Shown here one piece after another: positions 24,131 through 50,076 of a DNA stretch of 64,000 nucleotides. The notes beneath the pieces are model-generated. The model was not told the origin of the DNA, ran no database searches, and saw nothing but the letters and a program-made list of their open reading frames with translations. Each line of letters opens with the position of its first letter. The first letter of the stretch is position 1. Location of the stretch: NCBI GenBank assembly GCA_016931955.1, contig JAFGDV010000002.1, forward strand, positions 32,001 through 96,000, given 5' to 3'. Origin of the DNA: Candidatus Altiarchaeota archaeon (GTDB taxonomy: Archaea > Altiarchaeota > Altiarchaeia > IMC4 > QMZM01). Both the position numbers and the translations under genes were made by a program.

Positions 24131-24131
24131 C

Positions 24132-24806: not shown

Positions 24807-24819
24807 GTTGCTCCCCAGA

Positions 24820-25440
24820 TCAAAGAGACTTCAATTTTCTGTCAATCTTGTTAACCAGAACGCCCAACGAAGACGAATCCAAGAGGAATATGAAATCACC
24901 CGTTATCTCGCCCCTCTTCCCCCTGAATTTGACCTGGATAATCAAAACAGACTCTATCCTCTTATCAATGCCTCGAAGCACGAAATCTATCAGAGACTTT
25001 GCGACGTCAAAAACAATGCAGGGAGGAGAATGATACAAGGTAACACCTAAAAAGTTGCCCAACTCGGTGAGGTAACTTGCCGTCAATATGTTACCAACCT
25101 CTCCCAAGGCAGAGCGATCATCGTAACTTAGAATCTCCGTGGTCCCAATATCCCTGCCGTAGAGCAGGTCAGATAAAGCCAGTGAGCTCTCACGCGAGAG
25201 GACCAAGAGGCTTGTTCCGCCCAGGTCGCCCATCATCCTCAAGTAGATACCCATTGCAAGCGTATCTGGACCCCCCACCCTCTTCGGCACTTCCCCTATA
25301 GGCAGAAACTGCACCTTAGACATCTCTACCTCAACACGGCTTTCAACCATCTTGGAGAGCGACTTTGTGGCAGTGACCATGCCTTTATCCGCAACGCCCT
25401 TTAAAGCCCTCTTTTGTCCCTCCGTAAGTTGAGCAACCAT
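24820..25440 (-). CDS. cheC: CheC-family protein (second site intact)
   Basis: RALKGVADKG degenerate; SALGEVGNIL intact. Confidence 0.85.
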   Translation of the reverse strand: MVAQLTEGQKRALKGVADKGMVTATKSLSKMVESRVEVEMSKVQFLPIGEVPKRVGGPDTLAMGIYLRMMGDLGGTSLLVLSRESSLALSDLLYGRDIGTTEILSYDDRSALGEVGNILTASYLTELGNFLGVTLYHSPPCIVFDVAKSLIDFVLRGIDKRIESVLIIQVKFRGKRGEITGDFIFLLDSSSLGVLVNKIDRKLKSL

Positions 25441-25450
25441 CTTCTTTTAC

Positions 25451-25930
25451 TTAGATCGAGGTAGTCGGACCATGTATCCTGCTGACGACGACCTCACCTG
25501 TTTCGGTGTCGAACCAGATAGATCTGCCCTCGGTCCCGCCAACATCCTCGGCTACTATCTCAATGCACTTCTCTCTGAGCTTTTTTCTGACTGCTTCCAC
25601 ATTTTTCTTGCCTATGTCAGATATCCTTGGTACGTTGGGGAAAATCTCGGCTCCGCCGCATAGTTTCGCTTTTATATCATGTGTCTTGCAGCCGAGGATG
25701 AGCATGCTCTTTACCATGGCATCTACTGTCTTGTCGACGAACCTCAGGGGATTGATACCCTGAGCAGCCTCTTTGCTATCTGGGAGGATTATGTGAGCTA
25801 AAGCGGCTATCTTTGTCTTCTCGTCTCTTAGACAGATGGCTACGCATGAGCCCAAACCAAGAACCTCCAGTATGCAAGGATTATGTATTATCTTGAACTC
25901 TGCCATGCCGACTGTTATCTTCTTAGTCAT
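25451..25930 (-). CDS. cheD: chemoreceptor glutamine deamidase CheD
   Basis: LGLGSCV, AHIILP, KLCGGA, AEDVGGTEGR. Confidence 0.92.
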   Translation of the reverse strand: MTKKITVGMAEFKIIHNPCILEVLGLGSCVAICLRDEKTKIAALAHIILPDSKEAAQGINPLRFVDKTVDAMVKSMLILGCKTHDIKAKLCGGAEIFPNVPRISDIGKKNVEAVRKKLREKCIEIVAEDVGGTEGRSIWFDTETGEVVVSRIHGPTTSI

Positions 25931-26576
25931 CTTTTTTTTCTTCCATCTCCAAGAGGTACCTGACGTTTTTGATAAGCACGCCCATGTGAGAGTAAAACAG
26001 AACTACGAAGTGGCCGGTTATCTCCAACCCTTCTACGAGGAATCGGGTGTTGAACAAGAGGGCATTTTCGACATCGCAGGCATGTTGCGCTATTATGGGG
26101 TCCATCACAGAGTCGAGCATATCCGCTGCCAGCGCTGGAAGAGACTCCACAAGGCTCAGGTTAAGGTACTCTGCAATTGCAGAGAGATAGCTTCCTGCGA
26201 GGATGTTTCCGATCTCCATCAATGTGGAACGATCCATATCCGACAGCTCTTCAGCTCCAGTTGCTTCCTCCCCTTGCAGGATCTTCGCAAGTGTTGCCGC
26301 ATCCTTTACAGGGAGTACCAGAAGTAGACTGCATACCTCGAATTGGTTATCAAGGGATGTGCCATCAATATGCAGGTATATGTTGGTTATCTCCTTCTCT
26401 GGTCTGCCCATCTTGGATGTGACGGTTTCAAGGGGACACACCTCCATCCAAGGAAAGCTTACCTCGATCTTCTTGTCTGTAAGGGACGATAGGGCGATCG
26501 ATGCATGCCCAGCTCCAATGGAGGATATCTCCATCAGGGCATCTAACTCCAGTGGCGTCAGGTTCTTGAATTTCAT
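25923..26576 (-). CDS. cheC: CheC-family protein (second site intact)
   Basis: DALMEISSIGAGH; STLMEIGNIL. Confidence 0.88.
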   Translation of the reverse strand: MKFKNLTPLELDALMEISSIGAGHASIALSSLTDKKIEVSFPWMEVCPLETVTSKMGRPEKEITNIYLHIDGTSLDNQFEVCSLLLVLPVKDAATLAKILQGEEATGAEELSDMDRSTLMEIGNILAGSYLSAIAEYLNLSLVESLPALAADMLDSVMDPIIAQHACDVENALLFNTRFLVEGLEITGHFVVLFYSHMGVLIKNVRYLLEMEEKKDD

Positions 26577-27577
26577 AGTATCTCAACGATTTTATCTGCG
26601 ATACCCAGCAAAGGCAGGATGAAATCCGCATCCCCGTTTCTTATAATCATTTTAGGCATTCCAAATATTAAACTTGTTGATTCATCTTGGACTATGATCT
26701 TTCCACCATTCTTTTTTACCCACTTCACCCCATTCGCGCCGTCATCTCCCATACCAGTTAATATAACCGCTATTACGTTTTTACCGCATACCTTCGAAAC
26801 GGACTTCAATGTGACGTCTATGCAAGGCTTTACTATAGTATGTTTTTTGTTTAATTGAGTAAATAAATGTTTCCCTTTTTGCACTACCTCCAGGTTGTAA
26901 CCCCCAGGAGCCACTAGAACCTTGCCTTTATCAAGTAGGCTGCCTTCTTTTGCTTCTTCCACCTTTAGTGGGCACACTGCATCCAGCGTCTCAGCGAACG
27001 CCTTAGTGAATCCCGCCGGCATGTGTTGTACGACTAGAACGGCAGCTGGAAAATCCTTTGGGAACGAAGACAGTATAGTTCTAATTGTGGCCACACCACC
27101 GCAGGAAGCACCCAATACCAAAACCTTCTCGGATATCTTAGGCGCAGACAATTTTTTCTTCGGCTTCTTTATCACGAGTTTTTTTATCTCAAGGGATGAT
27201 GCGACTCGCACCAATGCTATCAGCTCTTCCTTCATTTCCTCCAGATCGCTGAGCCGGTTAGGCATCACTATGAAGTCCACTGCCCCATAGCCTAAGGCAC
27301 TCAGCATCTCCCGCCTTCCCAGATCAGATTCTCGGCCGACCACTATCGTTGGAGTAGGATCAAGCAGCATTATGTTGTAGAGGATGTCCAATGCATGTAC
27401 TCCCTTCATCTCTATGTCTAGTAGAACAACATCCGGCTCAAGGAGCTCAATCTTGTCTAAAGCCTCCTCAGCTAGACCAGAGCGGTGGATGACCTTTATC
27501 TCTGGTTCGGACTCCAGCATACATGTAAGCTTGACCCCAAAAAAATAAGAATCCGCTATTATGAGGACCTTGATCAT
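26573..27577 (-). CDS. cheB: chemotaxis methylesterase CheB with degenerate receiver domain
   Basis: Esterase triad GASCGG, VQHMP, GMGDDG; REC domain lacks conserved Lys and Thr/Ser. Confidence 0.92.
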   Translation of the reverse strand: MIKVLIIADSYFFGVKLTCMLESEPEIKVIHRSGLAEEALDKIELLEPDVVLLDIEMKGVHALDILYNIMLLDPTPTIVVGRESDLGRREMLSALGYGAVDFIVMPNRLSDLEEMKEELIALVRVASSLEIKKLVIKKPKKKLSAPKISEKVLVLGASCGGVATIRTILSSFPKDFPAAVLVVQHMPAGFTKAFAETLDAVCPLKVEEAKEGSLLDKGKVLVAPGGYNLEVVQKGKHLFTQLNKKHTIVKPCIDVTLKSVSKVCGKNVIAVILTGMGDDGANGVKWVKKNGGKIIVQDESTSLIFGMPKMIIRNGDADFILPLLGIADKIVEIL

Positions 27578-27586
27578 TCTCCCATT

Positions 27587-27955
27587 CTATGAGAATCTCC
27601 TGACAACATCAAGTATCTGCTCCCTCTTGAATGGTTTGGTTACGTAGGCCTTTGCACCTATCCTCATCGCTTCTTTCATAGGATCCCCATGGCCTATGGC
27701 GGTTACCATGACAATGACCGCTTTTGGATCTATTTTCATGATCTCGGCTAAGACCTGCAGACCATCCTTCTCTGCCATTATTATGTCCAGTAAGACGATG
27801 CCGGGCCTTTCTTTCTTGTAGACCTCAACTGTTTCAGTCCCGTTCTGGGCTTCAACGATATCGCGATAACCTTCCTCAGAGAGCATCGTCTTAAGCATAT
27901 TCCTCATGAAGGCAGAATCATCTGCCAACAATACCTTAGGTTTTGCCATTTTCAT
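27587..27955 (-). CDS. cheY: CheY-like response regulator
   Basis: ADDSAFMR, LLDIIM, VTA, KPF. Confidence 0.9.
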   Translation of the reverse strand: MKMAKPKVLLADDSAFMRNMLKTMLSEEGYRDIVEAQNGTETVEVYKKERPGIVLLDIIMAEKDGLQVLAEIMKIDPKAVIVMVTAIGHGDPMKEAMRIGAKAYVTKPFKREQILDVVRRFS

Positions 27956-28310
27956 CCAAGAGTTTGTTTATGTTTTTAATCAACTTTGCCTCAGTTATCG
28001 GCTTTGATATGTATGAGCACGCCCCTCGTTTGATGCAGTCCTCCATGGTCTTCTGATCCCTTATTATGCTCGACACTATAATCTTCACCTCGGGTTTGAT
28101 CTCCATCAGCCTATCGAGCACATACAACCCGTCATTGCCAGGCATCTTCAGATCGAGCAATACGATATCTGGATCCTCTACACCGCACTTTAGTATGCAA
28201 TCGTTTCCGTTAACGGCCTCGACGACATCACTGTACCCGTTTTTTTGGAGGATGCTAATCAACGCCCTGCGCTCGAACATGGAGTCATCTGCTACAAGTA
28301 TCTTGACCAT
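27936..28310 (-). CDS. cheY: CheY-like response regulator
   Basis: ADDSMFER, LLDLKMP, VSS, SKP. Confidence 0.85.
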   Translation of the reverse strand: MVKILVADDSMFERRALISILQKNGYSDVVEAVNGNDCILKCGVEDPDIVLLDLKMPGNDGLYVLDRLMEIKPEVKIIVSSIIRDQKTMEDCIKRGACSYISKPITEAKLIKNINKLLDENGKT

Positions 28311-28396
28311 CAGCACCACTATCTTGACTAATTAAATATCTATCTTCTCATTTATATCCTTTTTGTTTTTCTCATTTAAAGTTCTATTCTATTATA

Positions 28397-28759
28397 ATGC
28401 ACGAGTTCTCGATAGCTGAAGACATCCTGGAGGTCGCACTGGATGAGGCGGAAAAGCATAAAGCTTCCAGGATAAAACACATCTCTGTGGAGGTTGGAGG
28501 GCTCATGATGGCGAACCTCGAGCAATTGGATTTCGCCCTCAGATCCCTGTCAGTTGGAACCCTTGCAGAGGATATGGAAGTCGACCTGAAGACGGTCCCT
28601 GGGAGATTCAAGTGCGACAACAACCACGTGAATGAGGTAAGTATTGAGGAGGATGACCTCTACCTGGCCCTAGCCTCTCTCAGATGCCCTGAATGCGGCA
28701 GCCCTCTAAGGGTGTTGAGCGGAAAAGAGTGCGTGCTGAAGAGGATAATCGCCGAATAA
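28397..28759 (+). CDS. hypA: hydrogenase nickel metallochaperone HypA
   Basis: MHEFSIA N-terminus, CPECG, SGKE. Confidence 0.9.
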   Translation: MHEFSIAEDILEVALDEAEKHKASRIKHISVEVGGLMMANLEQLDFALRSLSVGTLAEDMEVDLKTVPGRFKCDNNHVNEVSIEEDDLYLALASLRCPECGSPLRVLSGKECVLKRIIAE

Positions 28760-28766
28760 CGCTAAA

Positions 28767-29417
28767 ATGCATGTGATAGACGTAGACAGGGATATCATGG
28801 AGATCAACAGGAGGATATCTGAAAGGAACCAAAGAGTCTTGGAAGAGAACAATGTCTTTGGATTCGATGTTTTGGGGGCTATCGGCTCTGGCAAGACCTC
28901 CCTGATTGAGGCCTTGGTTGGGAGGATCGGGAAAAAACTGGGGATCGGAGCGATAGCGGGTGACGTTATTAGTGACGCCGACGCCAGCCGTTTGAAGAGG
29001 TGTGGAATCCCAGTCATCGGCTTGAACACTGGAAGGGAGTGCCATCTTGACGCCCACCTCGTCGAGCATGCGCTTGAGAGCCTTCCATTAAAGGACCTCG
29101 ACATTCTGTTCATAGAGAACGTGGGGAACCTCATATGTCCAGTAGACTTCCCGCTTGGGGCACATCGGAGGATCGTTGTAGTAAGCGTGAGCGAGGGGGA
29201 CGACACCGTAGAAAAGCACCCCATGATCTTCCTGGACTCTGATCTTGCGGTGATAAACAAGATAGACATCGCAGAAGCGGTTGATGCGAGCGTTGAGAAG
29301 ATGGAATACGACGCCAAACGGATCAATCCACGGCTGCCTGTGATAAAAACAAGCATGAAGAAGGGTATCGGTCTAAACGAAATAGTCGATTGGATAAGAA
29401 AAGAATCCAATCTATAG
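28767..29417 (+). CDS. hypB: hydrogenase nickel incorporation GTPase HypB
   Basis: GAIGSGKT, ECHLDA, ENVGNLICP, NKID. Confidence 0.95.
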   Translation: MHVIDVDRDIMEINRRISERNQRVLEENNVFGFDVLGAIGSGKTSLIEALVGRIGKKLGIGAIAGDVISDADASRLKRCGIPVIGLNTGRECHLDAHLVEHALESLPLKDLDILFIENVGNLICPVDFPLGAHRRIVVVSVSEGDDTVEKHPMIFLDSDLAVINKIDIAEAVDASVEKMEYDAKRINPRLPVIKTSMKKGIGLNEIVDWIRKESNL

Positions 29418-29432
29418 TTTAATGGTGATATC

Positions 29433-29672
29433 ATGTGTCTGGCTATCCCAGGAAGGATCCTGGATATAAAGGACAATGAAGCATCTGTTGACTTCGGCGG
29501 CGTGAAAAGGCCTGTTAGGATTGACTTAGTCGACGCCAAGGTGGGAGACTACGTCATCGTCCATACGGGATACGCAATCGAGGTATTGGATGAAGAGGAA
29601 GCTCTTGAAAGCCTGAAACTGTGGAGACAAATCCTCTCCAAAATGGACGATGATCCTAAGAGATTTCCGTGA
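29433..29672 (+). CDS. hypC: hydrogenase chaperone HypC
   Basis: MCLAIPG, VGDYVIVHTGYA. Confidence 0.95.
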   Translation: MCLAIPGRILDIKDNEASVDFGGVKRPVRIDLVDAKVGDYVIVHTGYAIEVLDEEEALESLKLWRQILSKMDDDPKRFP

Positions 29673-30720
29673 TAGGGGGCTTGCCTTGAAGGCGTCAAAG
29701 GAGATAGGGGATATGGCATCAACCTTGGGCAAGGTAAAGATCATGCACGTCTGCGGAACCCACGAAGACACAATAACCCGTTTTGGGATAAGGTCTCTTC
29801 TCCCAGAGAATGTGGAGGTGATATCCGGTCCTGGATGCCCTGTCTGCGTTACGACGAACAGGGAGATAGATGAAGCCATATCGCTCGCACAAAAAGGCAT
29901 TACTGTGACGACGTTCGGTGACATGCTCCGGGTCCCTGGAAGCCGCTCCTCGCTGGCGGACTCGAAGGCTGATGGAAATGATGTGAGGATCGTCTACTCC
30001 GTAACTGACGCAGTAGAGATCGCCCATAAGAATCCGGAGAAAGAGGTTGCTCACATCGCCATAGGCTTCGAGACAACGATACCATCCAACGCGGTCGCCC
30101 TCCAAGACGCTCCTGAGAATTTCTCGATCCTATGCTGTCACCGGCTTATCCCTCCAGCGATGGAGTTGCTCTTGGAGTCTCACGAGGTGAGGATAGACGG
30201 CTTCATAGATCCTGGGCATGTTTCAGCCATAATAGGAGTAAAACCCTATAGACCTCTGGCGGAAAAATACAGGATACCTCACGTAATCGTCGGCTTCGAG
30301 CCCCTTGACGTTCTCTTCTCCATCATAATGCTGCTGGAGATGATAAAAAACCATGAATGTGAGGTAAGGAATGAGTACAGCCGCGTCGTCAAGGAGGAAG
30401 GCAATCAGAAGGCCTTAAGTATCATGGACGCTGTCTTCGAACCCTGCGACGTGGATTGGAGGGGCTTTCCTGTGATCCCAAGATCCGGGCTCATGTTGAG
30501 GGAACGATTCGCTGAACACGACGCAAGAGAGAGGTTCGAGCTTAGGGTAGAACCGACAGAGGATCTTCGGGGATGCAGGTGCTCTGATGTCTTGAAGGGG
30601 TTGATATATCCCAGAGAGTGCCCGCTCTTCGGTAAGGCGTGCACTCCCAAGAAGCCTGTCGGTCCCTGCATGGTCTCTGCTGAGGGCGCATGCTCTATAA
30701 TGTACAGACACACTAGCTAG
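29650..30720 (+). CDS. hypD: hydrogenase maturation protein HypD
   Basis: CGTH, GPGCPVC, GFETT, PGHVS, GPCMVSAEGAC. Confidence 0.95.
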   Translation: MILRDFRDRGLALKASKEIGDMASTLGKVKIMHVCGTHEDTITRFGIRSLLPENVEVISGPGCPVCVTTNREIDEAISLAQKGITVTTFGDMLRVPGSRSSLADSKADGNDVRIVYSVTDAVEIAHKNPEKEVAHIAIGFETTIPSNAVALQDAPENFSILCCHRLIPPAMELLLESHEVRIDGFIDPGHVSAIIGVKPYRPLAEKYRIPHVIVGFEPLDVLFSIIMLLEMIKNHECEVRNEYSRVVKEEGNQKALSIMDAVFEPCDVDWRGFPVIPRSGLMLRERFAEHDARERFELRVEPTEDLRGCRCSDVLKGLIYPRECPLFGKACTPKKPVGPCMVSAEGACSIMYRHTS

Positions 30721-30721
30721 G

Positions 30722-31720
30722 ATGGAAAGGATAAAACTCTTACACGGTGGCGGGGGGGAAGCCATGCAGGAATTGATCTCTGACGTGATTAAGAACCTCT
30801 CCCTCACAAAGGTTGAGGGTGGGATCGGCTTGGATGCCTTGGACGATTCAGCAACCATACCCTTTGGAGACAAGCACCTTGTCTTCACCACGGATGCGTA
30901 CACTGTAAAGCCGTTGTTCTTCCATGGGGGGGACATAGGCAGGCTCTCTGTTTCAGGGACCATAAACGACCTCGCTGTTATGGGCGCTAAACCAATCGCT
31001 CTCGCCTCTTCTTTCGTTATCGGTGAAGGCCTCCCATTTGAAGACTTGCGGAAGATAACGAAGTCCATGAACCAGGTCTGCAAGGAGGTCCCAGTACCTA
31101 TTATTACAGGAGACACCAAGGTCATGGAAGACCTTGATATGATCATAACAACGTCTGGCATAGGTTTAACAGAAAAACCGATACTGGACTCCGGGATGCG
31201 GCCAGGTGACAGGATAATAGTGAACGGCACCCTCGGCGATCACGGTATGGCGATCATGGCTCAGAGGGAGGGCATATCTTTCGAGACCGAACTGAGGTCT
31301 GACTGCGCACAGTTGTGGGGTCTTATAAAAAAGATCCTTAGATACGAGATACATGCCATGAAGGATCCTACGAGAGGCGGCCTAGCGAACGCCTTAAATG
31401 AGATGGCTGAGAAATCAAAATCAGGGGTTTTGTTGTATGAGGACCAGATACCCATGAAAGATGAAGTACTTGCGGCGTCTGAGATGCTTGGCATAGATCC
31501 CCTGTCTGTGGCAAACGAAGGGAAAGCCATTATTGTCACAAGCGAAAATGATACTGAGAAAATCCTAGAAACGATGAAGAAGACCCGCTTGGGTCGGGAT
31601 GCCTCCATAATAGGTGAGGTGACCGAAAAAGATAAGGGACGGGTGATAATGGAGACCCGCATAGGTGGCAGAAAGATCCTCAGCAAGCCTGCCGGCGACC
31701 CTGTCCCAAGGGTCTGTTAG
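30722..31720 (+). CDS. hypE: hydrogenase maturation protein HypE
   Basis: HGGGG, GDTKV, DPTRGG, ANEGK, C-terminal PRVC. Confidence 0.95.
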   Translation: MERIKLLHGGGGEAMQELISDVIKNLSLTKVEGGIGLDALDDSATIPFGDKHLVFTTDAYTVKPLFFHGGDIGRLSVSGTINDLAVMGAKPIALASSFVIGEGLPFEDLRKITKSMNQVCKEVPVPIITGDTKVMEDLDMIITTSGIGLTEKPILDSGMRPGDRIIVNGTLGDHGMAIMAQREGISFETELRSDCAQLWGLIKKILRYEIHAMKDPTRGGLANALNEMAEKSKSGVLLYEDQIPMKDEVLAASEMLGIDPLSVANEGKAIIVTSENDTEKILETMKKTRLGRDASIIGEVTEKDKGRVIMETRIGGRKILSKPAGDPVPRVC

Positions 31721-31721
31721 G

Positions 31722-32183
31722 ATGAAAACCCTGATACTGGGCATTGGGAATCCTATACTGACCGATGACGGCGTTGGTGTTTTGATTGCTGAACGCCTAC
31801 GTGATGTTGTCTCAGACCCGGAAATCGATGTCCGTGAGGAATCAACGTCTGGTCTTGACATCATAAGCCTTGTTAGGGGTTATGATAGGCTCATCCTCGT
31901 GGACGCTATAAAGACGGGTAAAGCCAGGGTTGGGGAGATACTCCGGCTCTCGCCTCAGGATATTACCAAGGAGCCTGCACTTCATTTCTCGACCCTTCAT
32001 GACGCGGATTTGATGACATCCCTGAATCTTGGTAGTGAACTTGGGATAGATATCCCTAGCGAAATAGTGATATACGCTGTTGAGGTCGAAAACGTGGAGG
32101 AATTTGGCGAGAAGTGCACACCTGAAGTGGAAAAAGCCATACCCAAGGCAGTGGAATTAATAAAGGAGGAATTGGGTCTATAA
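31722..32183 (+). CDS. hydrogenase maturation protease
   Basis: GIGNPILTDDGVG, LVDA, STLHD. Confidence 0.92.
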   Translation: MKTLILGIGNPILTDDGVGVLIAERLRDVVSDPEIDVREESTSGLDIISLVRGYDRLILVDAIKTGKARVGEILRLSPQDITKEPALHFSTLHDADLMTSLNLGSELGIDIPSEIVIYAVEVENVEEFGEKCTPEVEKAIPKAVELIKEELGL

Positions 32184-33554
32184 CCTCGGGAGGCTGGGGC
32201 TGTATGCCCTACATGCCATTTCTATCTTGTTGAGGTCTCTTCTTTTTGTGTTATTATTCCTGATCAATCCATCTGCCACCTGTTTTACAGAGACGCATAT
32301 AGCCGCATTGTTGTGGTTGCTGCCCGTTATTATGTCCGCCTTCTCTACGATGCCTTTCTCGTCTGTCACATAGTGGTGGATGAGTGTCCCTGAGGGTGAT
32401 TCTATAACGCCCACACCCTCCCCTTGCGTGTTTTCTGGAACATTCATCAGATTGTTGTCAGTAATCTCCGGATCCTGTATCAGCTCCAAAGCAAGCTCGG
32501 CTGAATAAAGCATTTCTATGAGGTCGGCCCAATGAAACGCCAAGGTGTGATGGCAGGGTTTCGGCAGTGTGTCAAGCATCCTCTCATATGCTTCCTGTGC
32601 CTGAGGTGTTTTCAATCCGTAGGCAACGTTTAATCTGGCCAGTGACCCGACCCGGTAAAGCCAAGAACGATCAGCGTCAGATAGCCCCTTCCAGCCAACC
32701 TTCCTCAGATGTGAGAAACCCAGATTAGACCATGATTCCTCGTGTTCTTCCACGTGCTGGGGGTAGTCTTCTCCCCTGAACCTTAAGATCTCCCTTCCGT
32801 GGGCGTCCACGACTTTTAGATCGCCATCATAGAGTTCAAGGCGTTCTTTTTCGTCCACTGTACCCATGTAGTTCGTCTTTATATGGTAGAGCCCCTCATC
32901 GAACAGTAGATCCACGTATGCACGATTCTTTAACACGATTTCTTCGAACAGATTTAATGTAAACGCTGCGAATTCTGTAAATGACTTTACTTTGCCCTCT
33001 ACCCAATCCCTCTCCTCTCCAGTGATACCCCGAGAGACGCCTCCGGGAAGCCCGCTTACTGGATGAACTGCCCTTCCCCCCAAGACCTGGAGTATCCTCT
33101 GTGCACGAAGAAGGTTTTCTGCCGCGTCCTTTGAGGTTTCCCTCCCGAGCCTCGCCGTTATTGCAGTGAGATTCCTTTCGCGAGCTGCTGAATCAGGGTT
33201 GATGAATAGGTCTGGAGCATTCAGGTAATAAAAATTTAGTAGTTTATTCCCAAAATGGGAGATATGGTATGTTAGTCTCCTTAGCTTGTCTGCTGTGGGT
33301 GTTGGCTCTGTTTTCCACAGAGCATCAAGTGCCTTCACAGACGCTATATGATGGGCCCAGCTGCATAGCCCGCTCATCCTTGAAATGATCCTCGGCATCT
33401 CCTCAGACGGCTGTCCGCGACATAATTCCTCAAAACCCTTCATACCCTTCGCTTGAAAGTACGCACTCACTCCCATCTCCCTATCTGAAAATATAGTTAT
33501 CCTAGCGTGGCCGTTTATTCTCGTTACCGGGTCTATTATTATCTTTTTCCTCAA
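32178..33554 (-). CDS. MvhA-like large-subunit homolog lacking Ni-Fe ligands (predicted inactive)
   Basis: Full-length homolog, but TRINGH, RMSGLC, ESPSG and terminal AYSPSLPRL replace TRIEGH, RICGxC, EAPRG, DPCxxC. Confidence 0.88.
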   Translation of the reverse strand: MRKKIIIDPVTRINGHARITIFSDREMGVSAYFQAKGMKGFEELCRGQPSEEMPRIISRMSGLCSWAHHIASVKALDALWKTEPTPTADKLRRLTYHISHFGNKLLNFYYLNAPDLFINPDSAARERNLTAITARLGRETSKDAAENLLRAQRILQVLGGRAVHPVSGLPGGVSRGITGEERDWVEGKVKSFTEFAAFTLNLFEEIVLKNRAYVDLLFDEGLYHIKTNYMGTVDEKERLELYDGDLKVVDAHGREILRFRGEDYPQHVEEHEESWSNLGFSHLRKVGWKGLSDADRSWLYRVGSLARLNVAYGLKTPQAQEAYERMLDTLPKPCHHTLAFHWADLIEMLYSAELALELIQDPEITDNNLMNVPENTQGEGVGVIESPSGTLIHHYVTDEKGIVEKADIITGSNHNNAAICVSVKQVADGLIRNNNTKRRDLNKIEMACRAYSPSLPRL

Positions 33555-34531
33555 TTTCTAGATGCCCTCCTTTGTTTCTTTAGGATGCTCGACGACAGGC
33601 TGAAGCGGTAGACTGTTCCACCAAGGGAGGGTATGCTCTCAACCGTCTTTCTTATGGTGGTCTTCTCTCCACCGCACATAATGGAAGCTAACGTCGATAT
33701 GTAGGCTCCACCCATGTCGAGGATTCCCTCAGCTGGTCCAAGGCATCCCCTACAAGGCATATTGGCTGAAACACACTGGCTTCCGCACCCGGCTCTTGTT
33801 ACAGGACCCATGCACAGCAGCCCCTGGTCAAGCAAGCAGACCTTATCGTCGAAAACCTTTTCATAGGGTCTGTGGAATACCTTGACGCTTTTCCCCTTCC
33901 TCGCTCTCTCACATTCGTCGCAGAGTGTCCTCCCAGAAGCGAACACTGAGCCTTTAGGAGGTAGTTTGTTCTCCAGCATGCTGACGAATAGCTTCAGGAT
34001 CATTGAAGGTGTTGGGGGACAACCTGGGATGAGATAGTCCACATCAATGACACCGCTTAATGGACTGATGAAGTCGCATGGCTCCGGAAGTGGAAGTATG
34101 CCCTCAGCAAGCTTTACCCTCTTCCTTGATTTTTCCTTCCCCTTGCCCTGTAGACCCAGCATGCCAGGTATTCCGCCCATGCAGGCGCATGATCCAACCG
34201 CTGTGATTATCTTGGATTTTTTTCTTAGAATCTGGGCCATGTCCATCTGCCCCCTGTTCATCACAGCACCGTTGAAGAGACAGAGGTCGATTGTTTTGTC
34301 ATACATCCTCTTTACCCGAGAGTATCTGAAATCCGCTATTAGAGGCCATAAAACGACGTCAATGTTTTCAGTTATATCCAAGAATCTCTCGCCCAATCCT
34401 ATGAAGGAGAGATCACAACCACCACATCCTCCTGCCATGTACAGTGCAACCTTCGGTTTTCTTCCTGGACTAATCTTCCTTACAGCTTCCGCTACCTGCG
34501 ACCAGTCTTCTCTGAATGCCTTAAGCTTCAT
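33551..34531 (-). CDS. mvhG: MvhG-like hydrogenase small (Fe-S) subunit
   Basis: CGGC, GSCA, GCPP, CDEC, CL..CMGP, CGSQC, CRGC retained. Confidence 0.88.
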   Translation of the reverse strand: MKLKAFREDWSQVAEAVRKISPGRKPKVALYMAGGCGGCDLSFIGLGERFLDITENIDVVLWPLIADFRYSRVKRMYDKTIDLCLFNGAVMNRGQMDMAQILRKKSKIITAVGSCACMGGIPGMLGLQGKGKEKSRKRVKLAEGILPLPEPCDFISPLSGVIDVDYLIPGCPPTPSMILKLFVSMLENKLPPKGSVFASGRTLCDECERARKGKSVKVFHRPYEKVFDDKVCLLDQGLLCMGPVTRAGCGSQCVSANMPCRGCLGPAEGILDMGGAYISTLASIMCGGEKTTIRKTVESIPSLGGTVYRFSLSSSILKKQRRASRN

Positions 34532-34910
34532 TCTCCCACCTTAGGGGTCCCAGGGATTTAAGCTTTGACGTCATCTCCTTGACAAGTTTCATGAACCCAA
34601 AGCTCTCAGACTCCTTAAGGCATTCGAAGCGTAGCCTTTCCCTGCTTATCCTCAGATCAGAGAGCAACCTTTGGAGGAGAACAAACCTCTTGAATGCTTC
34701 CCCGTCTTCCTCCGCTGAGTGGCATTCCCCCGGAGGGCTGCACAGCATCAGGATTCCGTCTGCGCCTTTTTTGAGTTCTGAGAGCAGAAGCTTTGGGTTA
34801 AGGTGATTAACACATCCCTCCCTTACCAGGGGGATTTCCTCAAGGCCGACGTTTTTAGGCAGACAGGATTTACAGGCAAAGACAATGATCTTGGGCTCAT
34901 ATTCTTCCAT
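34521..34910 (-). CDS. mvhD: MvhD-like [2Fe-2S] subunit (divergent)
   Basis: YEPKIIVFACKSC, GADGIL..C....CH, ERLRF, LGP. Confidence 0.8.
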   Translation of the reverse strand: MEEYEPKIIVFACKSCLPKNVGLEEIPLVREGCVNHLNPKLLLSELKKGADGILMLCSPPGECHSAEEDGEAFKRFVLLQRLLSDLRISRERLRFECLKESESFGFMKLVKEMTSKLKSLGPLRWENEA

Positions 34911-35760
34911 TTATGATCTTCTCCGTTATTCCCTCATACGCGCTCTTCACCTTCCCATCCGACCTATAATGGGAGAGTGGCAAGCCTCTTTTCTGCGCTT
35001 CGTAGACCTTTTTGGAGTATGGTACTATGAAAAGGTCTCCTCTGAACCCAACGCCTACCGACAAATGCAGCCGTAGTTTGTCTTCAAGCTCACTGAGGGG
35101 GTCTTCAAGAGACAGAAACCCTGATAGTTTCGGTACCCTATCCCTCAGCATCTTGTGTATTGGACGCACCGTGGGTTCCTGGAACCTTGTAACAATCACA
35201 GTGTTGATCCCCTTCTTCACGCCCTCCCTTTCTTCTATATTCTTCAGTATCTCAGCAAAGGTTTCGATGCTGTCTATGGAGAAGAAACCGCTGTCCAAGG
35301 GTAGTATGATAGAGTCTGCTGCAACGATTGCATTGGTCAGTAGTGGCGTGTAGCTGGGGGGCGTATCTATCAGTATGTAATCATAGAGTTCTCTGACATC
35401 GTCTAGGGCTCGATCAAGTATCTGGGAGGAACCCTTAGCCTTCTGCATGTGACCAAGGATGTTCGCCAGATTCAGTTCTGACGGAGCCAGATGAAGATCC
35501 TCTATCTCTGTTGCAAGTATCACATTCCTGAACCTTAACTTCCTTTTTCTCCCGCATCCCTCAAGAAGCACATCATATACCGAGAACGGCAGGTATCTTT
35601 TGTTTATATTCAAACCAGCGGTTGCGTTTGCTTGGGGGTCCATGTCGACGACAAGGACCTTCTTGCCTCTTTTCACCAGTTCCCCCGCAATGTTTATGCA
35701 TGAGGTCGTCTTGCCCGTGCCGCCCTTATGGTGGGCGAATGCTATGCATTTAGCCCGCAT
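34897..35760 (-). CDS. ParA/Soj family ATPase
   Basis: KGGTGKTT deviant Walker A, DMDPQAN, IDTPP. Confidence 0.92.
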   Translation of the reverse strand: MRAKCIAFAHHKGGTGKTTSCINIAGELVKRGKKVLVVDMDPQANATAGLNINKRYLPFSVYDVLLEGCGRKRKLRFRNVILATEIEDLHLAPSELNLANILGHMQKAKGSSQILDRALDDVRELYDYILIDTPPSYTPLLTNAIVAADSIILPLDSGFFSIDSIETFAEILKNIEEREGVKKGINTVIVTRFQEPTVRPIHKMLRDRVPKLSGFLSLEDPLSELEDKLRLHLSVGVGFRGDLFIVPYSKKVYEAQKRGLPLSHYRSDGKVKSAYEGITEKIINGRI

Positions 35761-35865
35761 CCTAATCAACAATATCGCAGAAAGTTCAGCCAGATGGATT
35801 ACAAGAGACGCACGCTTGAGCCTCTTTAAGCATATATTAAGTAGAACTATTATAAATACGTGTAA

Positions 35866-36516
35866 CTATTCCCCGACCTTCTTGTCAAGTTTTTCTATGA
35901 TCAGCTTCAGTGATTTTGAGTCTGGGAGGAATATCAATCTCCCCTTTATCGTGGTCTCCTTCGCCGTGAACTCCGTCGCCAGAATGAGTGCCTTCTTTAT
36001 CTCCCATGTGAAGCCCTTCCTTATGTCGGTGACAGACCTCTCCGTCATTGTGAAAGAAACCAGTGGAACATGATGGCACGGCCGCACATCCAAAAAATCG
36101 CTGAGTGCTGTAAGATATGATCCAAAGAGTATGTTGGATAACTCACTCAGAGCATCCCGCGATATCTGATCCAACACACTGGTTTCTTTTCTTACCAGGA
36201 TATTGCTGATTATTATGTCAGCCAATTTCGTCGCATCTTCTCTCTCAAAGACCATCACTATCAGGGCATTGATGTCGCCTGTTATGAGGGAGGAGATTTC
36301 GACGAGCAAATCCCTCGGAGGTGCAAGGGTTGAGGGTACTTCGTCGATGCCGACCAGTTTCACCCATGGAACCCTCAACATTATCTCGCAGTCTAGCATC
36401 TCTGAGAGGGCGACGCTTGAGCTCCCGGCGCCGATAGTCCCTACCTCTCTAAGAGCATCCAGCTGCAGCTTCGTCATACCTATGTCTTCCGTCATCCTCT
36501 TATAGATTTTACTCAA
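35866..36516 (-). CDS. cheC: CheC-family protein (second site intact)
   Basis: DALREVGTIGAG; DALSELSNIL. Confidence 0.85.
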   Translation of the reverse strand: MSKIYKRMTEDIGMTKLQLDALREVGTIGAGSSSVALSEMLDCEIMLRVPWVKLVGIDEVPSTLAPPRDLLVEISSLITGDINALIVMVFEREDATKLADIIISNILVRKETSVLDQISRDALSELSNILFGSYLTALSDFLDVRPCHHVPLVSFTMTERSVTDIRKGFTWEIKKALILATEFTAKETTIKGRLIFLPDSKSLKLIIEKLDKKVGE

Positions 36517-36547
36517 TCATGTATAAAAACATGTGAACGGCAGAAAG

Positions 36548-36556
36548 TATTTATAA
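36548..36556 (+). promoter_or_regulatory. TATA-box-like element upstream of cheY-cheY-cheA
   Basis: atttataag preceded by purine-rich BRE-like gaaagt, about 45 nt before the ATG. Confidence 0.45.
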
Positions 36557-36597
36557 GAGAAATACAAATACAATTATCAAATTATCGGGTGATCTGA

Positions 36598-36963
36598 ATG
36601 CCTAAGATTTTGACCATAGAAGACTCTACTTTTGAGAGGAAGGCCATACGCGATATGCTGGCTAGGGCAGGGTACACCAGCGTAGTGGAGGCTGAGAGCG
36701 GCGAGATCGGCTTAGAGAGGTACAAGAAGGAAAAACCTGACCTTGTTTTATTGGATCTCCGGATGCCAGGTATGCCTGGGATGGAAGTCTTAGAGGAGTT
36801 GAAGAAGATCAATCCAAGAGTCAGGGTGATAATAGTCAGCATAGTGAGGAAGAAGGAGACCGTCGACGAAGCGTTGAAGCTGGGCGTCGAAGCCTATGTT
36901 TCAAAACCGATCACTACCGAGAAACTAATACCTGAAGTTAAAAAAGCATTAGGAGGGAATTAA
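36598..36963 (+). CDS. cheY: CheY-like response regulator
   Basis: IEDSTFER, LLDLRMP, IVS, SKP. Confidence 0.88.
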   Translation: MPKILTIEDSTFERKAIRDMLARAGYTSVVEAESGEIGLERYKKEKPDLVLLDLRMPGMPGMEVLEELKKINPRVRVIIVSIVRKKETVDEALKLGVEAYVSKPITTEKLIPEVKKALGGN

Positions 36964-37323
36964 ATGACCAAAATACTATTAGCGGATGATTCTGCCTTTA
37001 TGAGGAAGATACTGACTAACATATTAACCAAGAAGGGATACACTGACCTCATCGAAGCTGTGGATGGAGAAGAGACTGTGGCAGCCTATACCAGAGAAAA
37101 ACCGGACCTTGTTCTCTTGGATATAGTAATGAAGAAGAAATACGGAACCGAGGCGTTGAAGGACATAATGCAGATGGATCCAAACGCCAAGATAATAATG
37201 GTATCGGCAGTAGGGCAGGAGAAGGTTATCGAGGAGGCAATTCAATTAGGCGCCAAGGGTTTTGTTGTTAAACCCTTCAAGGAAGAGGAAGTCTTAAGCA
37301 AGGTTAAGGAAGTCCTTGGCTAA
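36964..37323 (+). CDS. cheY: CheY-like response regulator
   Basis: ADDSAFMR, LLDIVM, VSA, KPF. Confidence 0.92.
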   Translation: MTKILLADDSAFMRKILTNILTKKGYTDLIEAVDGEETVAAYTREKPDLVLLDIVMKKKYGTEALKDIMQMDPNAKIIMVSAVGQEKVIEEAIQLGAKGFVVKPFKEEEVLSKVKEVLG

Positions 37324-37341
37324 TTCTCTGAATGCTCGGAA

Positions 37342-38931
37342 ATGGCAGATGACATGAGTGAATATAAGGAGCTCTACCTGAAGGAGGCGGAGGAATTACT
37401 GCAAAGCCTGAATTCTTCACTACTTGAGTTCGAGAAGAACCCGACAAGGGAGGACCTTATAAAGGAGATGGCACGTTGTGCCCATACACTCAAGAGTAAT
37501 TCTTCTTCAATGGGTTTCGAGAAACTGGCGGAATTATCTCACTCCATGGAGGACGGGTTGTTGATGCTCCAGGAGTCCGGCATTGAAGCCAGCGATGAGA
37601 TCATCGACCTCCTCTTTGAATGCTTCGACTACCTGGAGGTCTCAGTGGACAAGGTAAGCACTGGTGAGGAGGAACCAGACAACACAGATCTTTTGAAGAA
37701 ACTGGAGGTGCTGAAATCCACTGACATAAAGAAGAGGAGTAAGGAGGAGTCTGGTGTGAAACTCGCCGAACGGCCTCAGACCATCAGGAGGCTTCGCTCA
37801 ATCAAGGTGGACATCAAGATCCTAGATAAATTGGTGGACTTGGTTGGAGAACTACTGACCGCAACCATGAGGTTCCAGAACCTGAACTCAACGTACAAGA
37901 TCAAGGAATTCGACAAGATAATAAACCAGCTGAATATGCTAACGGAGGATATCCAATACGAGGTCACTGAAGCAAGAATGATCCCTGTTGGCCAGGTATT
38001 CAACCGGTTTCCGAGGATGGTGCGAGACCTGGCGAAGAGGGAGAACAAGAAGGTGGACTTCACCATTGAGGGAAGCGACATACAACTGGATAGAACTGTG
38101 TTGGATCAGATCGGTGAGCCACTGATCCATCTGCTGAGGAATTCCATAGACCACGGCATCGAATCTCCGGAGGAGAGGATTAAGGCAGGCAAACCCGAGA
38201 CAGGCAAAATCCATTTGAGAGCCAGTAGAGAGAAAAACGCCGTAATCATTGAGGTCATTGACGATGGCGCAGGCTTCGATGAAGACAAGATAAAGGAGAT
38301 AGCAATAAAAAAGGGCGTGATAACGGAGGAGGAGGCTAAGACCATACCCAAAAAGCAGTTACTGGATATCCCATTTCTGCCCACTTTCAGCACATCCGAT
38401 AAGGTCACCAAGGTCTCCGGCAGAGGGGTTGGATTGGATGTTGTCAAGACAAAGATTGATGAACTAAATGGGTCGCTGAAGATGGAGACCGAAAAGAGCA
38501 AGGGGACGAGATTCATCCTAGGTCTGCCGCACACTCTAGCAATCATCAAGTGCCTCCTAACGTACGTCGGCGAGGAACGCTATGCTTTGCCCATCATTGA
38601 TATCTCAAGGATCGTCAACATCGAAGAATCTAGGATGCAACACATCGAAGGCAATGAAGTCTTCATTCTCGATGGCGAAGACATACCCCTGATAAGGCTG
38701 CGCGACGTATTTAATCTGCCCCGCAAGAAAGACAGAAAACTGACGGTAATAATTACTGAGAGAACCCAGGAGAAGAACGGTATTGCTGTGGATGGGATCA
38801 TCGGTGAACAGGAGCTTATGATAAAGTCGGTGACTAAAACGCTGAAGAAGATCAAGGGAATAGCAGGTGCTACCATCCTTGGCGATGGTCAACCCGCCAT
38901 GGTCTTGGATATTAATGGCCTGCTTGCTTAG
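37342..38931 (+). CDS. cheA: chemotaxis histidine kinase CheA (no P2 domain)
   Basis: HPt AHTLKS, RFPRMVRDLA, HLLRNSIDHG, DDGAG, SGRGVGLDVV, C-terminal CheW-like GATILGDG. Confidence 0.95.
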   Translation: MADDMSEYKELYLKEAEELLQSLNSSLLEFEKNPTREDLIKEMARCAHTLKSNSSSMGFEKLAELSHSMEDGLLMLQESGIEASDEIIDLLFECFDYLEVSVDKVSTGEEEPDNTDLLKKLEVLKSTDIKKRSKEESGVKLAERPQTIRRLRSIKVDIKILDKLVDLVGELLTATMRFQNLNSTYKIKEFDKIINQLNMLTEDIQYEVTEARMIPVGQVFNRFPRMVRDLAKRENKKVDFTIEGSDIQLDRTVLDQIGEPLIHLLRNSIDHGIESPEERIKAGKPETGKIHLRASREKNAVIIEVIDDGAGFDEDKIKEIAIKKGVITEEEAKTIPKKQLLDIPFLPTFSTSDKVTKVSGRGVGLDVVKTKIDELNGSLKMETEKSKGTRFILGLPHTLAIIKCLLTYVGEERYALPIIDISRIVNIEESRMQHIEGNEVFILDGEDIPLIRLRDVFNLPRKKDRKLTVIITERTQEKNGIAVDGIIGEQELMIKSVTKTLKKIKGIAGATILGDGQPAMVLDINGLLA

Positions 38932-38947
38932 ATACCACAGTACCAAA

Positions 38948-39625
38948 ATGACTGAACTATCAAAATTCGAGATCGACGCGATAGCTGAGATAATAAACAT
39001 CGGTGCAGGGCATGCATCCAACGCACTATCCGTGATGACTCGCAAGGACATACACATGAGCTTCCCTGAGGTGAAACTATGTCCGATAGAAAAGATACCC
39101 CAGCTCCTTGGCAATCCCGAGGACCTGGTTGCCGCAGTTTATCTCAAGATCGAGGGCAAGAGTAACAACAAACTCATCCCCGTTGGAAGCCTGATCTTTA
39201 TGTTACAGCATGATAGCGCAGAGGAGCTTGCGGCGCTTTTAGAGAACAGGAAACCGCCTAAAGAGAAGAGTTTCGAACTCGGTGAGATGGATGTATCCGC
39301 ATTAGAGGAGACTGGAAACATCCTCAGCGGTGCTTCATTAACAGCGATAAGCAAGGTCCTTGACATGCAATTGGTCGAGTCACTGCCACATTTCGCACAC
39401 GACATGCTTCAAGCAGTATTGAGTTTCTGTTTGATCGAGCTGGCCCCAAAGGCGACGGATGCGTTGACATTTACGACCGCATTCGAGGTCGAAGGCCACG
39501 AAATAGACGCCTACTTCCTCCTTTTATTAGACCCAGAGAGCTTAGAGCTCCTCAGTAAGAGACTGAGGACACTATTTGAGGATATGCTAGCGGAATACAT
39601 AGAAGAGGAGTACTCAGATGCGTGA
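38948..39625 (+). CDS. cheC: CheC phosphatase (both sites intact)
   Basis: DAIAEIINIGAGH; SALEETGNIL. Confidence 0.92.
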   Translation: MTELSKFEIDAIAEIINIGAGHASNALSVMTRKDIHMSFPEVKLCPIEKIPQLLGNPEDLVAAVYLKIEGKSNNKLIPVGSLIFMLQHDSAEELAALLENRKPPKEKSFELGEMDVSALEETGNILSGASLTAISKVLDMQLVESLPHFAHDMLQAVLSFCLIELAPKATDALTFTTAFEVEGHEIDAYFLLLLDPESLELLSKRLRTLFEDMLAEYIEEEYSDA

Positions 39626-40097
39626 GAAACAAGCATATTTGAACATAGGGGAGGGCAGGGTAGTTAATGAACCGACGATTCTCGAAGCAGTTGGCATAGG
39701 CTCATGCATCGTAATCTGCCTTTATGATAAAGAAAAAAGGGTGGCTGGCATGGTCCATGCCCTATTAGGCAACAATCCGCATGACGAAAAAGCGGATCTG
39801 AATCCCATGAGGTTCGCCGATACTGCTATAGATCTCCTATTAGGGGAGATGGCCGAAAAGGGCTGCCAAAAGGGGAACATAGTCGCGAAGATCTTCGGCG
39901 GGGCTAAACTCTTTACCTTGGAACACATCAACGTGGGCGAAGATAACATATTTGCTGTAAGACAGAAACTCGAAGAGGTTGGAATACCAATAGTAGCTGA
40001 AGACACCGGTGGAAAACACGGCAGGAATATCTGGTTCGACACAGAAAACGGGAAAGTAGTTGTTGGGAGGGTCTTCGGACCCACGTTGGAGTATTAG
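39618..40097 (+). CDS. cheD: chemoreceptor glutamine deamidase CheD
   Basis: GIGSCI, GMVH, KIFGGA, AEDTGGKHGR. Confidence 0.92.
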   Translation: MREKQAYLNIGEGRVVNEPTILEAVGIGSCIVICLYDKEKRVAGMVHALLGNNPHDEKADLNPMRFADTAIDLLLGEMAEKGCQKGNIVAKIFGGAKLFTLEHINVGEDNIFAVRQKLEEVGIPIVAEDTGGKHGRNIWFDTENGKVVVGRVFGPTLEY

Positions 40098-40909
40098 CTA
40101 ACCTTCCTGAATATCCTCTCAGAGAGGCTGACCAGATTGAATTTCTTATGCATTGCCTCATGCATTGTCTCTGTTTTCCCTATTACGAGATAACCCTCCT
40201 TGGCCAGTGAGTCATAGAATGCCTCAAAGATTTCCTTCTGCGTATCCCTTGAGAAGTAGATGAAAACGTTCCTGCAGAATATCACGTCCACATAGTGCTG
40301 AGGCTTTCCGTTTATCAGGTCGCTTTTTTCGAATTTCACCATGGACTTTATGCTGTCCCTTAACCTGTAATAGTCGCAGACCTTGTCGAAGTATTTTTCC
40401 AGTAACTCAACACCAACATTCTTGAGAAGGTCTTTTTCGTATAAGCCTCTCACAGCATCCCCCAGGCACTTTTCATCGATATCTGTCGCCTTTATAGCTA
40501 CTACAAAGTTCTTCATATCATCCCCAAGTAGCTCTTGGAGGATGATTGCTATGCTGTAGGGTTCTTCGCCGGCTGCGCATCCGGCAGACCATATGCTTAT
40601 AACCTTCTTTCCCTCCCTCTTCTTCCTATCAATCAGTTCGGGAAAGATCTCTTCCCTCAATAGATCAAACATCTCCTTGTCCCTGAAAAACTCGGTGAAA
40701 TTGATCGTTAACACATCCACTAGCTTGTCGTATTCCCTCTTGTTGTTTATGAGTAACCTTATGTATTCCCCATATGACTGAACATTATTGACCTTCATCC
40801 GGACGTTGATCCTCCTCTTCAGGGTCGTGTCTTTGTAGTTTTTACAGTTGAAGCCCCTCTCCCTTTGTATCATGTCCTTGAGCAACTCGAAATCGTCTCT
40901 CGTCTCCAT
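40094..40909 (-). CDS. cheR: chemotaxis methyltransferase CheR
   Basis: TINFTEFFRD, WSAGCAAGEEPYS, ATDID, IFCRNVFIYF. Confidence 0.95.
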   Translation of the reverse strand: METRDDFELLKDMIQRERGFNCKNYKDTTLKRRINVRMKVNNVQSYGEYIRLLINNKREYDKLVDVLTINFTEFFRDKEMFDLLREEIFPELIDRKKREGKKVISIWSAGCAAGEEPYSIAIILQELLGDDMKNFVVAIKATDIDEKCLGDAVRGLYEKDLLKNVGVELLEKYFDKVCDYYRLRDSIKSMVKFEKSDLINGKPQHYVDVIFCRNVFIYFSRDTQKEIFEAFYDSLAKEGYLVIGKTETMHEAMHKKFNLVSLSERIFRKVS

Positions 40910-41018
40910 CTTCAAGTAATAAATTTGGCATTCAGGTATTTATCCGTTGAATCGCTGGGGGTAAAAGATATATACTAGTTAATCCAATTAATCTAACAAA
41001 TAGTTTACAGGTGATAAC

Positions 41019-50060: not shown

Positions 50061-50076
50061 CAGGTGATCTAAAAAA

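Follow-up and report, generated by a model that had tools for sequence, protein, structure and literature searches.

How the genes of a hydrogenase complex can remain in open, overlapping frames after the large subunit has lost its Ni-Fe site is the question raised by three genes on a stretch of 64,000 nucleotides (nt) from a Candidatus Altiarchaeota archaeon (GenBank assembly GCA_016931955.1, contig JAFGDV010000002.1, positions 32,001 to 96,000 of the forward strand; hereafter the window, numbered from its first letter). On the minus strand, head to tail after a parA-like gene, lie mvhD (34521..34910), encoding a stand-alone MvhD-like [2Fe-2S] subunit of 129 amino acids (aa); mvhG (33551..34531), encoding a small subunit of 326 aa with all twelve conserved cysteines for three [4Fe-4S] clusters; and mvhA (32178..33554), encoding an MvhA/VhuA-type large subunit of 458 aa with a degenerate Ni-Fe site and no C-terminal tail. 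We refer to these genes and their products as the trio. The copy is specific to its lineage, evolves rapidly, and was found in no other genome. On balance we favor the reading that the trio descends from an Mvh-type (group 3c) [NiFe]-hydrogenase, no longer activates hydrogen, and is maintained as an Fe-S electron module, whereas its more specific functional variants, even taken jointly, appear improbable.

The trio mvhA frame runs over its full 458 aa without an internal stop, and its product matched the Pfam family NiFeSe_Hases (PF00374) with 65.7 bits against a cut-off of 25.8, in line with the initial annotation, which had described a 458-aa MvhA homolog free of stops and frameshifts. The best NCBIfam model, VhuA, scored 298.4 bits, below its equivalog cut-off of 800, a test that discriminates little here, as the canonical third large subunit of the genome also fell short at 397 bits. 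The best-scoring NCBIfam families (VhuA, ShyA, and FrhA) all belong to group 3, and the best sequence matches in the Protein Data Bank (PDB) were 9sfi_g (E 1.1e-80) and 5odc_F (E 4.1e-79). Motifs were read from a residue alignment to the solved MvhA 5odc_F and from a 120-sequence alignment that included the 119 best homologs. The proton-relay residue Glu14 (RxEGH) is Asn in the trio protein (TRINGH), in a column that is 99% Glu; the first L1 cysteine, Cys61, is Ser (RMSGLCSWAHH, codon AGC), where 119 of 119 homologs carry Cys; the canopy Arg388 (APRG) is Ser (ESPSG), in a column that is 100% Arg; and the L2 motif DPCxxC reads SPSLPR (D452S, C454S, C457R), at columns conserved in all 119 homologs. 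The second L1 cysteine, Cys64, and the AHH of L1 are retained, and three of the four Ni-Fe cysteines are lost. The protein ends (SPSLPRL, stop) two residues before the processing His, beyond which the 119 homologs continue for 25-45 residues. The four substitutions and the missing cleavable tail reported by the initial annotation were therefore all recovered, and its proposed alignment to group 3 large subunits placed the substitutions at positions conserved at 99-100%. Homologs sharing these substitutions together with parA or che neighbors, which it had suggested seeking, were not found: the changes occur in the query alone (1 of 120 aligned sequences), and the trio occurs in one genome only.

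The electron-transferring subunits present a different picture. Trio MvhG matched Oxidored_q6 with 82.7 bits and VhuG with 195 bits, the latter far below the equivalog cut-off. It was compared with 66 homologs (at least 190 bits, at most 420 aa, one per locus) drawn from 78 hits, plus MvhG1 of the same genome, and was also aligned to 5odc_E. Its best identity to any of these 67 homologs was 46%, yet at each of the 12 positions where at least 80% of them carry Cys it does so too, and the claim that its Fe-S cysteine motifs are kept was thus confirmed. Trio MvhD matched FlpD (PF02662) with 70.4 bits against a cut-off of 22.3; among NCBIfam models, HdrA2 (49.7 bits, over its C-terminal MvhD-like part) ranked above VhuD (39.4 bits), both far below their equivalog cut-offs. 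Against 60 homologs from 79 hits and the C-terminus of the genome's own HdrA::MvhD, it holds five conserved cysteines, of which Cys13, Cys16, Cys33, and Cys63 align and Cys57 is shifted by one residue. The Cys pattern attributed to it was accordingly found for these five, with one pair showing CX5C rather than CX4C spacing; Ala replaces the first Cys of the methanogen 'CC'. Three of four Ni-Fe ligands are lost versus none of the 12 Fe-S ligands (hand-computed exact p = 4/560 = 0.007). As judged from sequence, the loss is specific to the Ni-Fe site and the Fe-S ligands are preserved.

Structure prediction with AlphaFold2 returned a confident model of trio MvhA (predicted local distance difference test [pLDDT] 89.6, predicted template modeling score [pTM] 0.92), uncertain only in the former Glu loop (residues 9-15) and at the termini; its best PDB fold match was MvhA 5odc_F (template modeling score 0.92). 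The complex was modeled as the trio MvhG-MvhD pair, which reached an interaction score (ipSAE) of 0.82 versus 0.00 for the best control, with a partner pLDDT of at least 74 and at least 90% of contacts agreeing between runs; among solved complexes, 58 of 80 attained the ipSAE mark, as did 2 of 110 mismatched pairs. Since structures of Mvh complexes already exist, this score speaks for a retained likeness of the interface and not for binding. Under the reading we favor, the tail-less MvhA would fold and dock without the Hyp/protease maturation route and serve structurally, capping the small subunit. The trimer would then form a cytoplasmic Fe-S electron-transfer or electron-buffering module, in which electrons may pass from the [2Fe-2S] cluster through the distal and medial to the proximal [4Fe-4S] cluster, and the trio would probably be transcribed together with parA.

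The arrangement of the genes is compact. The overlap of all open reading frames (ORFs) noted in the initial annotation was reproduced, measuring 14 nt between parA and mvhD, 11 nt between mvhD and mvhG, and 4 nt between mvhG and mvhA. Trio mvhA starts with TTG, 11 nt after a Shine-Dalgarno-like AAGGAGGG; mvhG starts with ATG and has a Shine-Dalgarno-like GGTGGGAG ahead; and a Shine-Dalgarno-like GGAG precedes the mvhD start. The parA-like gene encodes a deviant Walker A ATPase (34897..35772, minus strand; AAA_31/ParA 161.9 bits, KGGTGKT motif), the 3' 14 nt of which overlap the start of mvhD. A cheC-like phosphatase gene (35866..36516, minus strand) lies upstream of parA across a 93-nt gap, within which an AT-rich, TATA-like stretch was picked out by eye at about 35830-35860. 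Co-transcription of the trio with parA is plausible. At the other end, a hydrogenase maturation endopeptidase gene (31665..32183, plus strand, likely start ATG 31722) converges on mvhA such that the two stops overlap by 6 nt, and the place of the tail-coding segment is thus taken by the 3' end of the protease gene.

Whether the trio is maintained or decaying was approached through the pattern of change in trio mvhA. Matches to the consensus, binned from invariant columns (57 of 73) and columns conserved at 95-100% (49 of 69) to progressively more variable ones (63 of 108, 32 of 79, 38 of 90, and 7 of 37), dropped from 78% to 19%. Neutral drift should strike all bins alike, and this gradient therefore speaks for maintenance. 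The 210 replacements had a mean BLOSUM62 score of -0.06, compared with -0.55 (standard deviation [sd] 0.12) in a neutral simulation and +0.26 (range -0.05 to 0.57) in live homologs. At conserved columns, the corresponding values were -0.19 for trio mvhA, -0.68 (sd 0.18) under neutrality, and +0.46 for live homologs, placing the trio protein 2.7 sd above neutral. In a neutral simulation started from the live paralog gene, matching the 25% change observed at conserved sites required about 204 substitutions, which brought a mean of 5.4 stops, and 7 of 1000 runs remained stop-free (mvhA alone, indels ignored). The end branch of trio mvhA measured 1.34-1.39 changes per site versus a median of 0.13-0.16 in maximum-likelihood trees, about nine times the median, and that of trio mvhG (tree of 38 of 68 rows) 1.5-1.8 versus a median of 0.15. 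It is very unlikely that 12 of 12 MvhG cysteines survived 1.5-1.8 changes per site by chance. Taken together, the trio looks like a maintained protein complex in which constraint is relaxed on the large subunit but strong on the Fe-S ligands.

The most serious alternative, which we regard as possible though unlikely, is that the trio is a relic in decay, namely a second Mvh operon, duplicated or acquired, that lost its 3' end and function at the protease junction and is now drifting, stop-free so far. Several observations weigh on that side and against maintenance. The trio is a singleton: no ortholog of its mvhA was found in 5.8 billion protein clusters (8000 candidates scored, 5917 with E <= 1e-20), where the best non-self match was 50% identical; a search of 185,579 species genomes gave 75 loci of at most 51% full-length identity; 20 of 40 relatives' genomes had a match, none above 50% identity; and among 1.84 billion cluster representatives the best identity was 46%. 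The trio was absent from the 60 other genomes of the phylum searched (61 in the collection). The same-genus genome G001 (73% complete) carries a live MvhA alone, and its parA is not followed by a trio. Because no ortholog was found, neither a ratio of nonsynonymous to synonymous rates (dN/dS) nor cross-species conservation of the dead state is available to argue for maintenance, and a paralog-based dN/dS is uninformative since at about 50% amino-acid identity the synonymous sites have reached saturation. On its long branch, trio MvhA changed 36 of 142 aligned columns conserved at 95% or more, compared with 0-4 in five live controls, and its replacement quality is intermediate, unlike that of a live enzyme; trio MvhD is heavily altered, with a 9-residue loop deleted and 21 of 42 columns of at least 90% conservation changed. 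The simulated stop-free fraction, though low, cannot be neglected, and the changes that inactivated the site could have come late on the long branch. The end of trio mvhA coincides exactly with the point where it meets the convergent protease gene. The genome already has two live Mvh-type hydrogenases, and the trio has no evident redox partner. The only HdrA already carries a fused MvhD; no MvhD-less HdrA was found in the genome, which has two MvhD domains in total. Finally, the assembly is without independent read support: a read check over 27800..37000 with the runs X1-X3 (about 56% of X1 read) yielded 35-42-nt fragments of 90-95% likeness from other organisms and left the trio uncovered, so that it bears on neither expression nor assembly; the search for runs gave one of DNA, the probable source, and none of RNA.

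Decay nevertheless has to account for the 12 cysteines kept on an equally long branch, the retention gradient, replacements milder than neutral, and three frames intact over 2.7 kb when stop-free outcomes were rare for one gene alone. The Shine-Dalgarno motifs and coupled starts are also intact, and the composition is native (GC content, GC content at third codon positions, and codon usage all within the range of the genome), implying long residence. This genome-typical composition likewise means that the trio is not a recent import, and recent horizontal transfer was rejected on that ground. The statement that the trio is not a decaying pseudogene is therefore supported by the Fe-S cysteines, the gradient, the milder replacements, the open frames, and the Shine-Dalgarno motifs, but it is not proven.

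The origin of the trio was addressed by comparison with mvhA1, which the initial annotation had proposed as the source of a duplication on the strength of its 3' part at 1..864 of the window. The likeness was borne out (51% identity over 252 aa), and two of the motifs cited, YMGTVD and GWKGL, proved to be family-wide consensus. Duplication itself was neither borne out nor refuted, as the two trees disagree. The large-subunit tree puts trio mvhA outside the family clade (approximately unbiased test p = 0.031, for a group named after the tree had been seen), whereas the small-subunit data are compatible with a family origin (p = 0.71), the family-constrained mvhG tree being 9.5 log-likelihood units better than a quick free search. 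The stand-alone MvhD resembles the bacterial gene layout and not the hdrA::mvhD fusion of the family.

A different fate for the large subunit, which we consider quite improbable, is that the remodeled Ni-Fe pocket accommodates a novel substrate or cofactor in electron exchange with the proximal cluster, much as a hydrogenase site gave rise to the quinone site of complex I. The pocket now presents Asn14, Ser61, Cys64, Ser388, Ser452, Ser454, and Arg457, with the bridging-position Cys64 and the AHH of L1 kept, and the electron wire is complete up to the proximal cluster. Precedents exist in Nuo and Ehr, which the accessible portion of the HydDB paper names, with NARF and HmdII, as non-H2 homologs (PMC5037454). 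Site loss is also recurrent nearby. A search of the 1.84 billion cluster representatives gave 3078 hits, and of the 91 representatives of at least 400 aa examined among the best 150, 18 lack at least one Ni-Fe cysteine by eye (P0126, P0128, P0131, P0133, P0134, P0145, P0156, P0187, P0198, P0209, P0233, P0236, P0238, P0240, P0251, P0253, P0260, and P0265); 14 of these 18 end at or before the processing site. About ten further representatives, in which L1 is canonical but the C-terminal part is scrambled, were taken for frameshifted predictions and not counted as degenerate. In a tree of 17 degenerate rows (P0131 left out), 33 live rows, and the query, site loss required seven changes, at least four of them forced by well-supported branches. 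Seven of the degenerate rows form one clade (support 97), three form another (100), and two pair up (96); the window copy fell in none of these groups. However, a single sequence defines no conserved new motif, the other degenerate families do not share the replacements of trio MvhA, and the segments lining the pocket are the least confident of the model (residues 9-15 with pLDDT below 50, residues 451-458 with a mean of 65).

One of these degenerate groups, a tail-less family that has lost all four cysteines (P0233, P0238, P0240, P0265, and P0187, with the metagenomic loci L142 and L143), bears more directly on the electron-module reading. The two loci came from a second metagenome scan (alignment A4) that returned 80 loci; of the 78 large-subunit ORFs recovered, the other 76 were canonical wherever the region was covered. 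The large subunit of this family has no Pfam hit at E <= 1e-4 and scores 98 bits against VhuA, and the small subunits of L142 and L143 keep 12 of 12 cysteines. Locus L143 (18..6818) runs hdrA-like, mvhD (canonical), mvhG-like, Cys-less large subunit, 4Fe-4S ferredoxin, and aldehyde:ferredoxin oxidoreductase (AOR), and the family has the appearance of a module derived from Mvh that handles electrons for an AOR-type enzyme. With its intact small subunit and the redox partners in L143, it therefore supports the electron-module reading of the trio by analogy. An intact small subunit beside a dead large subunit was checked in the window and in these two loci of one other family. Another of the 18, P0126, had no match in the metagenome scan and, among the 61 genomes of the phylum, nothing closely related. 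The 11 further large subunits examined in the relatives' loci, and the third one of this genome, are all canonical.

The initial annotation had proposed a redox sensor or scaffold inside a chemosensory cluster. Its position in such a cluster is real, but a sensory role did not find support, adjacency being seen in one genome only. In its most explicit form, the Fe-S trimer would signal the cellular redox state to the ParA-like ATPase or into the che pathway, in place of the PAS chemoreceptor of relatives, an energy-taxis sensor made from a hydrogenase skeleton; we regard this as very improbable. The gene order cheC - parA - mvhD - mvhG - mvhA and the 14-nt overlap of parA and mvhD invite the idea, as do the relatives, where parA orthologs occur in che clusters, between cheC and a methyl-accepting chemotaxis protein (MCP) gene, in three of the four loci examined (G004, G013, and G017, but not G001). 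The G004 layout is cheC - parA - DsrE-like - PAS-MCP - cheW - cheY - cheB, and an MCP likewise comes after the che-cluster parA in G013 and G017; a PAS match was obtained in two of these three MCPs (G004 and, weakly, G013). The present genome has one MCP, which is of the Cache type (21280..23412). In G004, a DsrE/DsrF-like gene (L041 6039..6398) lies between parA and the PAS-MCP, a hint that this receptor may take a sulfur- or redox-related input.

Against a sensory trimer, the G001 parA, although 62% identical, sits on a 9.6-kb contig without trio or che neighbors, flanked by an ABC-transporter gene and a nitroreductase-like gene (both by eye). A Nop5-like ORF, likewise recognized by eye, lies on this contig and speaks for an archaeal genome. 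A Pfam scan of the trio found no MCP, HAMP, PAS, or CheW-binding domain, and no output domain links it to CheA/CheW, and no archaellin (PF01917) match was found in the 92% complete assembly. The other flank of the trio is moreover a block of hyp genes and the protease that has itself moved. Here hypA (28397..28759), hypB (28767..29417), hypD (29650..30720), and hypE (30722..31720), all on the plus strand, lie with the protease at 28397..32183, 30 kb from the live mvh genes. In the relatives G001, G012, and G005 (loci G001:C67, G012:C28, and G005:C31, compared with G000:C5:25957-34182), the hyp genes stand directly beside hypF and the live mvh: hypD, hypA, and hypE are divergent beside hypF - hdrA::mvhD - mvhG - mvhA, and the maturation protease follows mvhA in G012 and G005. 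HypD and HypE are 58-65% identical to those of the relatives, HypA 42% to that of G001, and the protease 39-45%. Because this flanking block was itself relocated from the live mvh, the position of the trio looks like a local rearrangement. The 6.5-kb hyp and mvh block splits the che genes of the window, the rest of the che cluster lying on its far side (19782..28319, minus strand: cheY-like, cheB, cheC, cheD, cheC, cheC, helix-turn-helix, Cache-type MCP, cheW, cheC), and che layouts differ among relatives. The che context is thus real yet lineage-specific and is best explained by rearrangement. As a side observation, the whole supercluster (19782..40915) holds six CheC-like genes, two cheD, cheA, cheB, cheR, and cheW, along with three single-domain receivers besides cheB. 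A role of ParA as an Fe-S/Ni maturation ATPase was also considered and rejected, since only its Walker A region matches NUBPL, NifH, and CooC-like models and its orthologs lie in che clusters.

That a chimeric or error-laden contig created the apparent substitutions is extremely improbable, for although this is a metagenome-assembled genome and the only DNA run found, its probable source, gave no contig that aligned to the stretch, six active-site replacements and about 200 coherent in-frame differences cannot be sequencing noise, the three overlapping genes continue into parA and the protease gene, the composition is genome-typical, and the contig spans 112 kb.

The remaining hydrogenase genes of this genome (1.55 Mb, 92% complete) share the contig, which carries three large subunits: mvhA1, a canonical third copy, and the dead one. 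The live mvhA1 (plus strand; full gene G000:C5:31383-32864, 493 aa) has all motifs and the tail and lies in the gene order hypF - hdrA::mvhD - mvhG1 - mvhA1 - hdrC - hdrB, in which it is directly followed by hdrC and hdrB. The third cluster, canonical and of the Mvh/Vhu type (49590..53292), comprises a maturation protease (49590..50060), a 182-aa ORF with no Pfam or NCBIfam match (50329..50877), a small subunit (50879..51859), and a large subunit (51856..53292) with all motifs and the tail, which is the one that scored 397 bits against VhuA. No MvhD gene lies beside this third cluster.

In its best-supported reading, the locus is one where a soluble Mvh-type hydrogenase shed its Ni-Fe site while its whole Fe-S chain was kept, which we attribute to selection, and the wider pattern of site loss in neighboring representatives raises the interest of this single case. 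Group 3 large subunits that are Cys-less and, for the most part, also tail-less could represent a class of pseudo-hydrogenase modules that has arisen repeatedly and is as yet undescribed. A full-text literature search turned up no account of group 3 large subunits that lack the Ni-Fe cysteines, although Table S1 of HydDB could hold such sequences. Sequences without CxxC motifs are routinely discarded by hydrogenase surveys, an example being the filter described in the accessible part of one survey (PMC8163825). If such modules are functional, predictions of H2 metabolism drawn from 'MvhA' annotations would be inflated, and the idea of a reusable electron-wire scaffold, a soluble equivalent of the step from hydrogenase to complex I, would become testable.

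Among known systems, the trio is closest to MvhAGD (group 3c, PDB 5ODC), with which it shares the three subunits, the D-G-A order, the three [4Fe-4S] sites, and the MvhD cysteines. It differs in lacking the Ni-Fe site (three of four Cys, the Glu, and the Arg lost), the processing tail, and an adjacent or free HdrA, and its MvhD has lost the 9-residue loop along with half of the conserved positions. NuoD/NuoB of complex I, Ehr, and Mbx/Mbs, which derive from group 4, also have a large-subunit homolog without Ni-Fe cysteines together with a retained proximal cluster, and they are functional. These are membrane complexes with antiporter-like subunits, whereas the trio is nearest to soluble group 3c and keeps all three clusters and MvhD. 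No membrane subunit genes adjoin the trio, the neighbors of which are parA, che, hyp, and protease genes, and its membership in a complex I- or Ehr-type assembly was rejected on the basis of this neighborhood and of closest families that belong to group 3. The H2-sensing HoxBC/HupUV hydrogenases (group 2b) likewise have a large subunit without the C-terminal processing tail and serve signaling, not energy metabolism. They keep the full Ni-Fe site and bind H2, whereas trio MvhA cannot ligate Ni-Fe canonically. In the available part of the relevant paper, HylA and NARF/Nar1 appear as [FeFe]-hydrogenase-like proteins without H-cluster motifs, and HylABC works with a formate dehydrogenase (PMC6085437). 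As far as that part describes it, HylA resembles trio MvhA in being a catalytic subunit that lost its active-site motifs and serves in a working Fe-S redox complex; HylA and NARF/Nar1 are unlike the trio in belonging to the unrelated [FeFe] family and in being conserved across many genomes, the trio being a singleton. The Cys-less MvhA-like family is 28-32% identical to the window copy, forms a separate clade, and has evident redox partners, whereas the trio has none. With its Ni-Fe site lost and its Fe-S ligands in place, the trio extends the known theme of hydrogenase-derived non-hydrogenases to a soluble Mvh-type enzyme.

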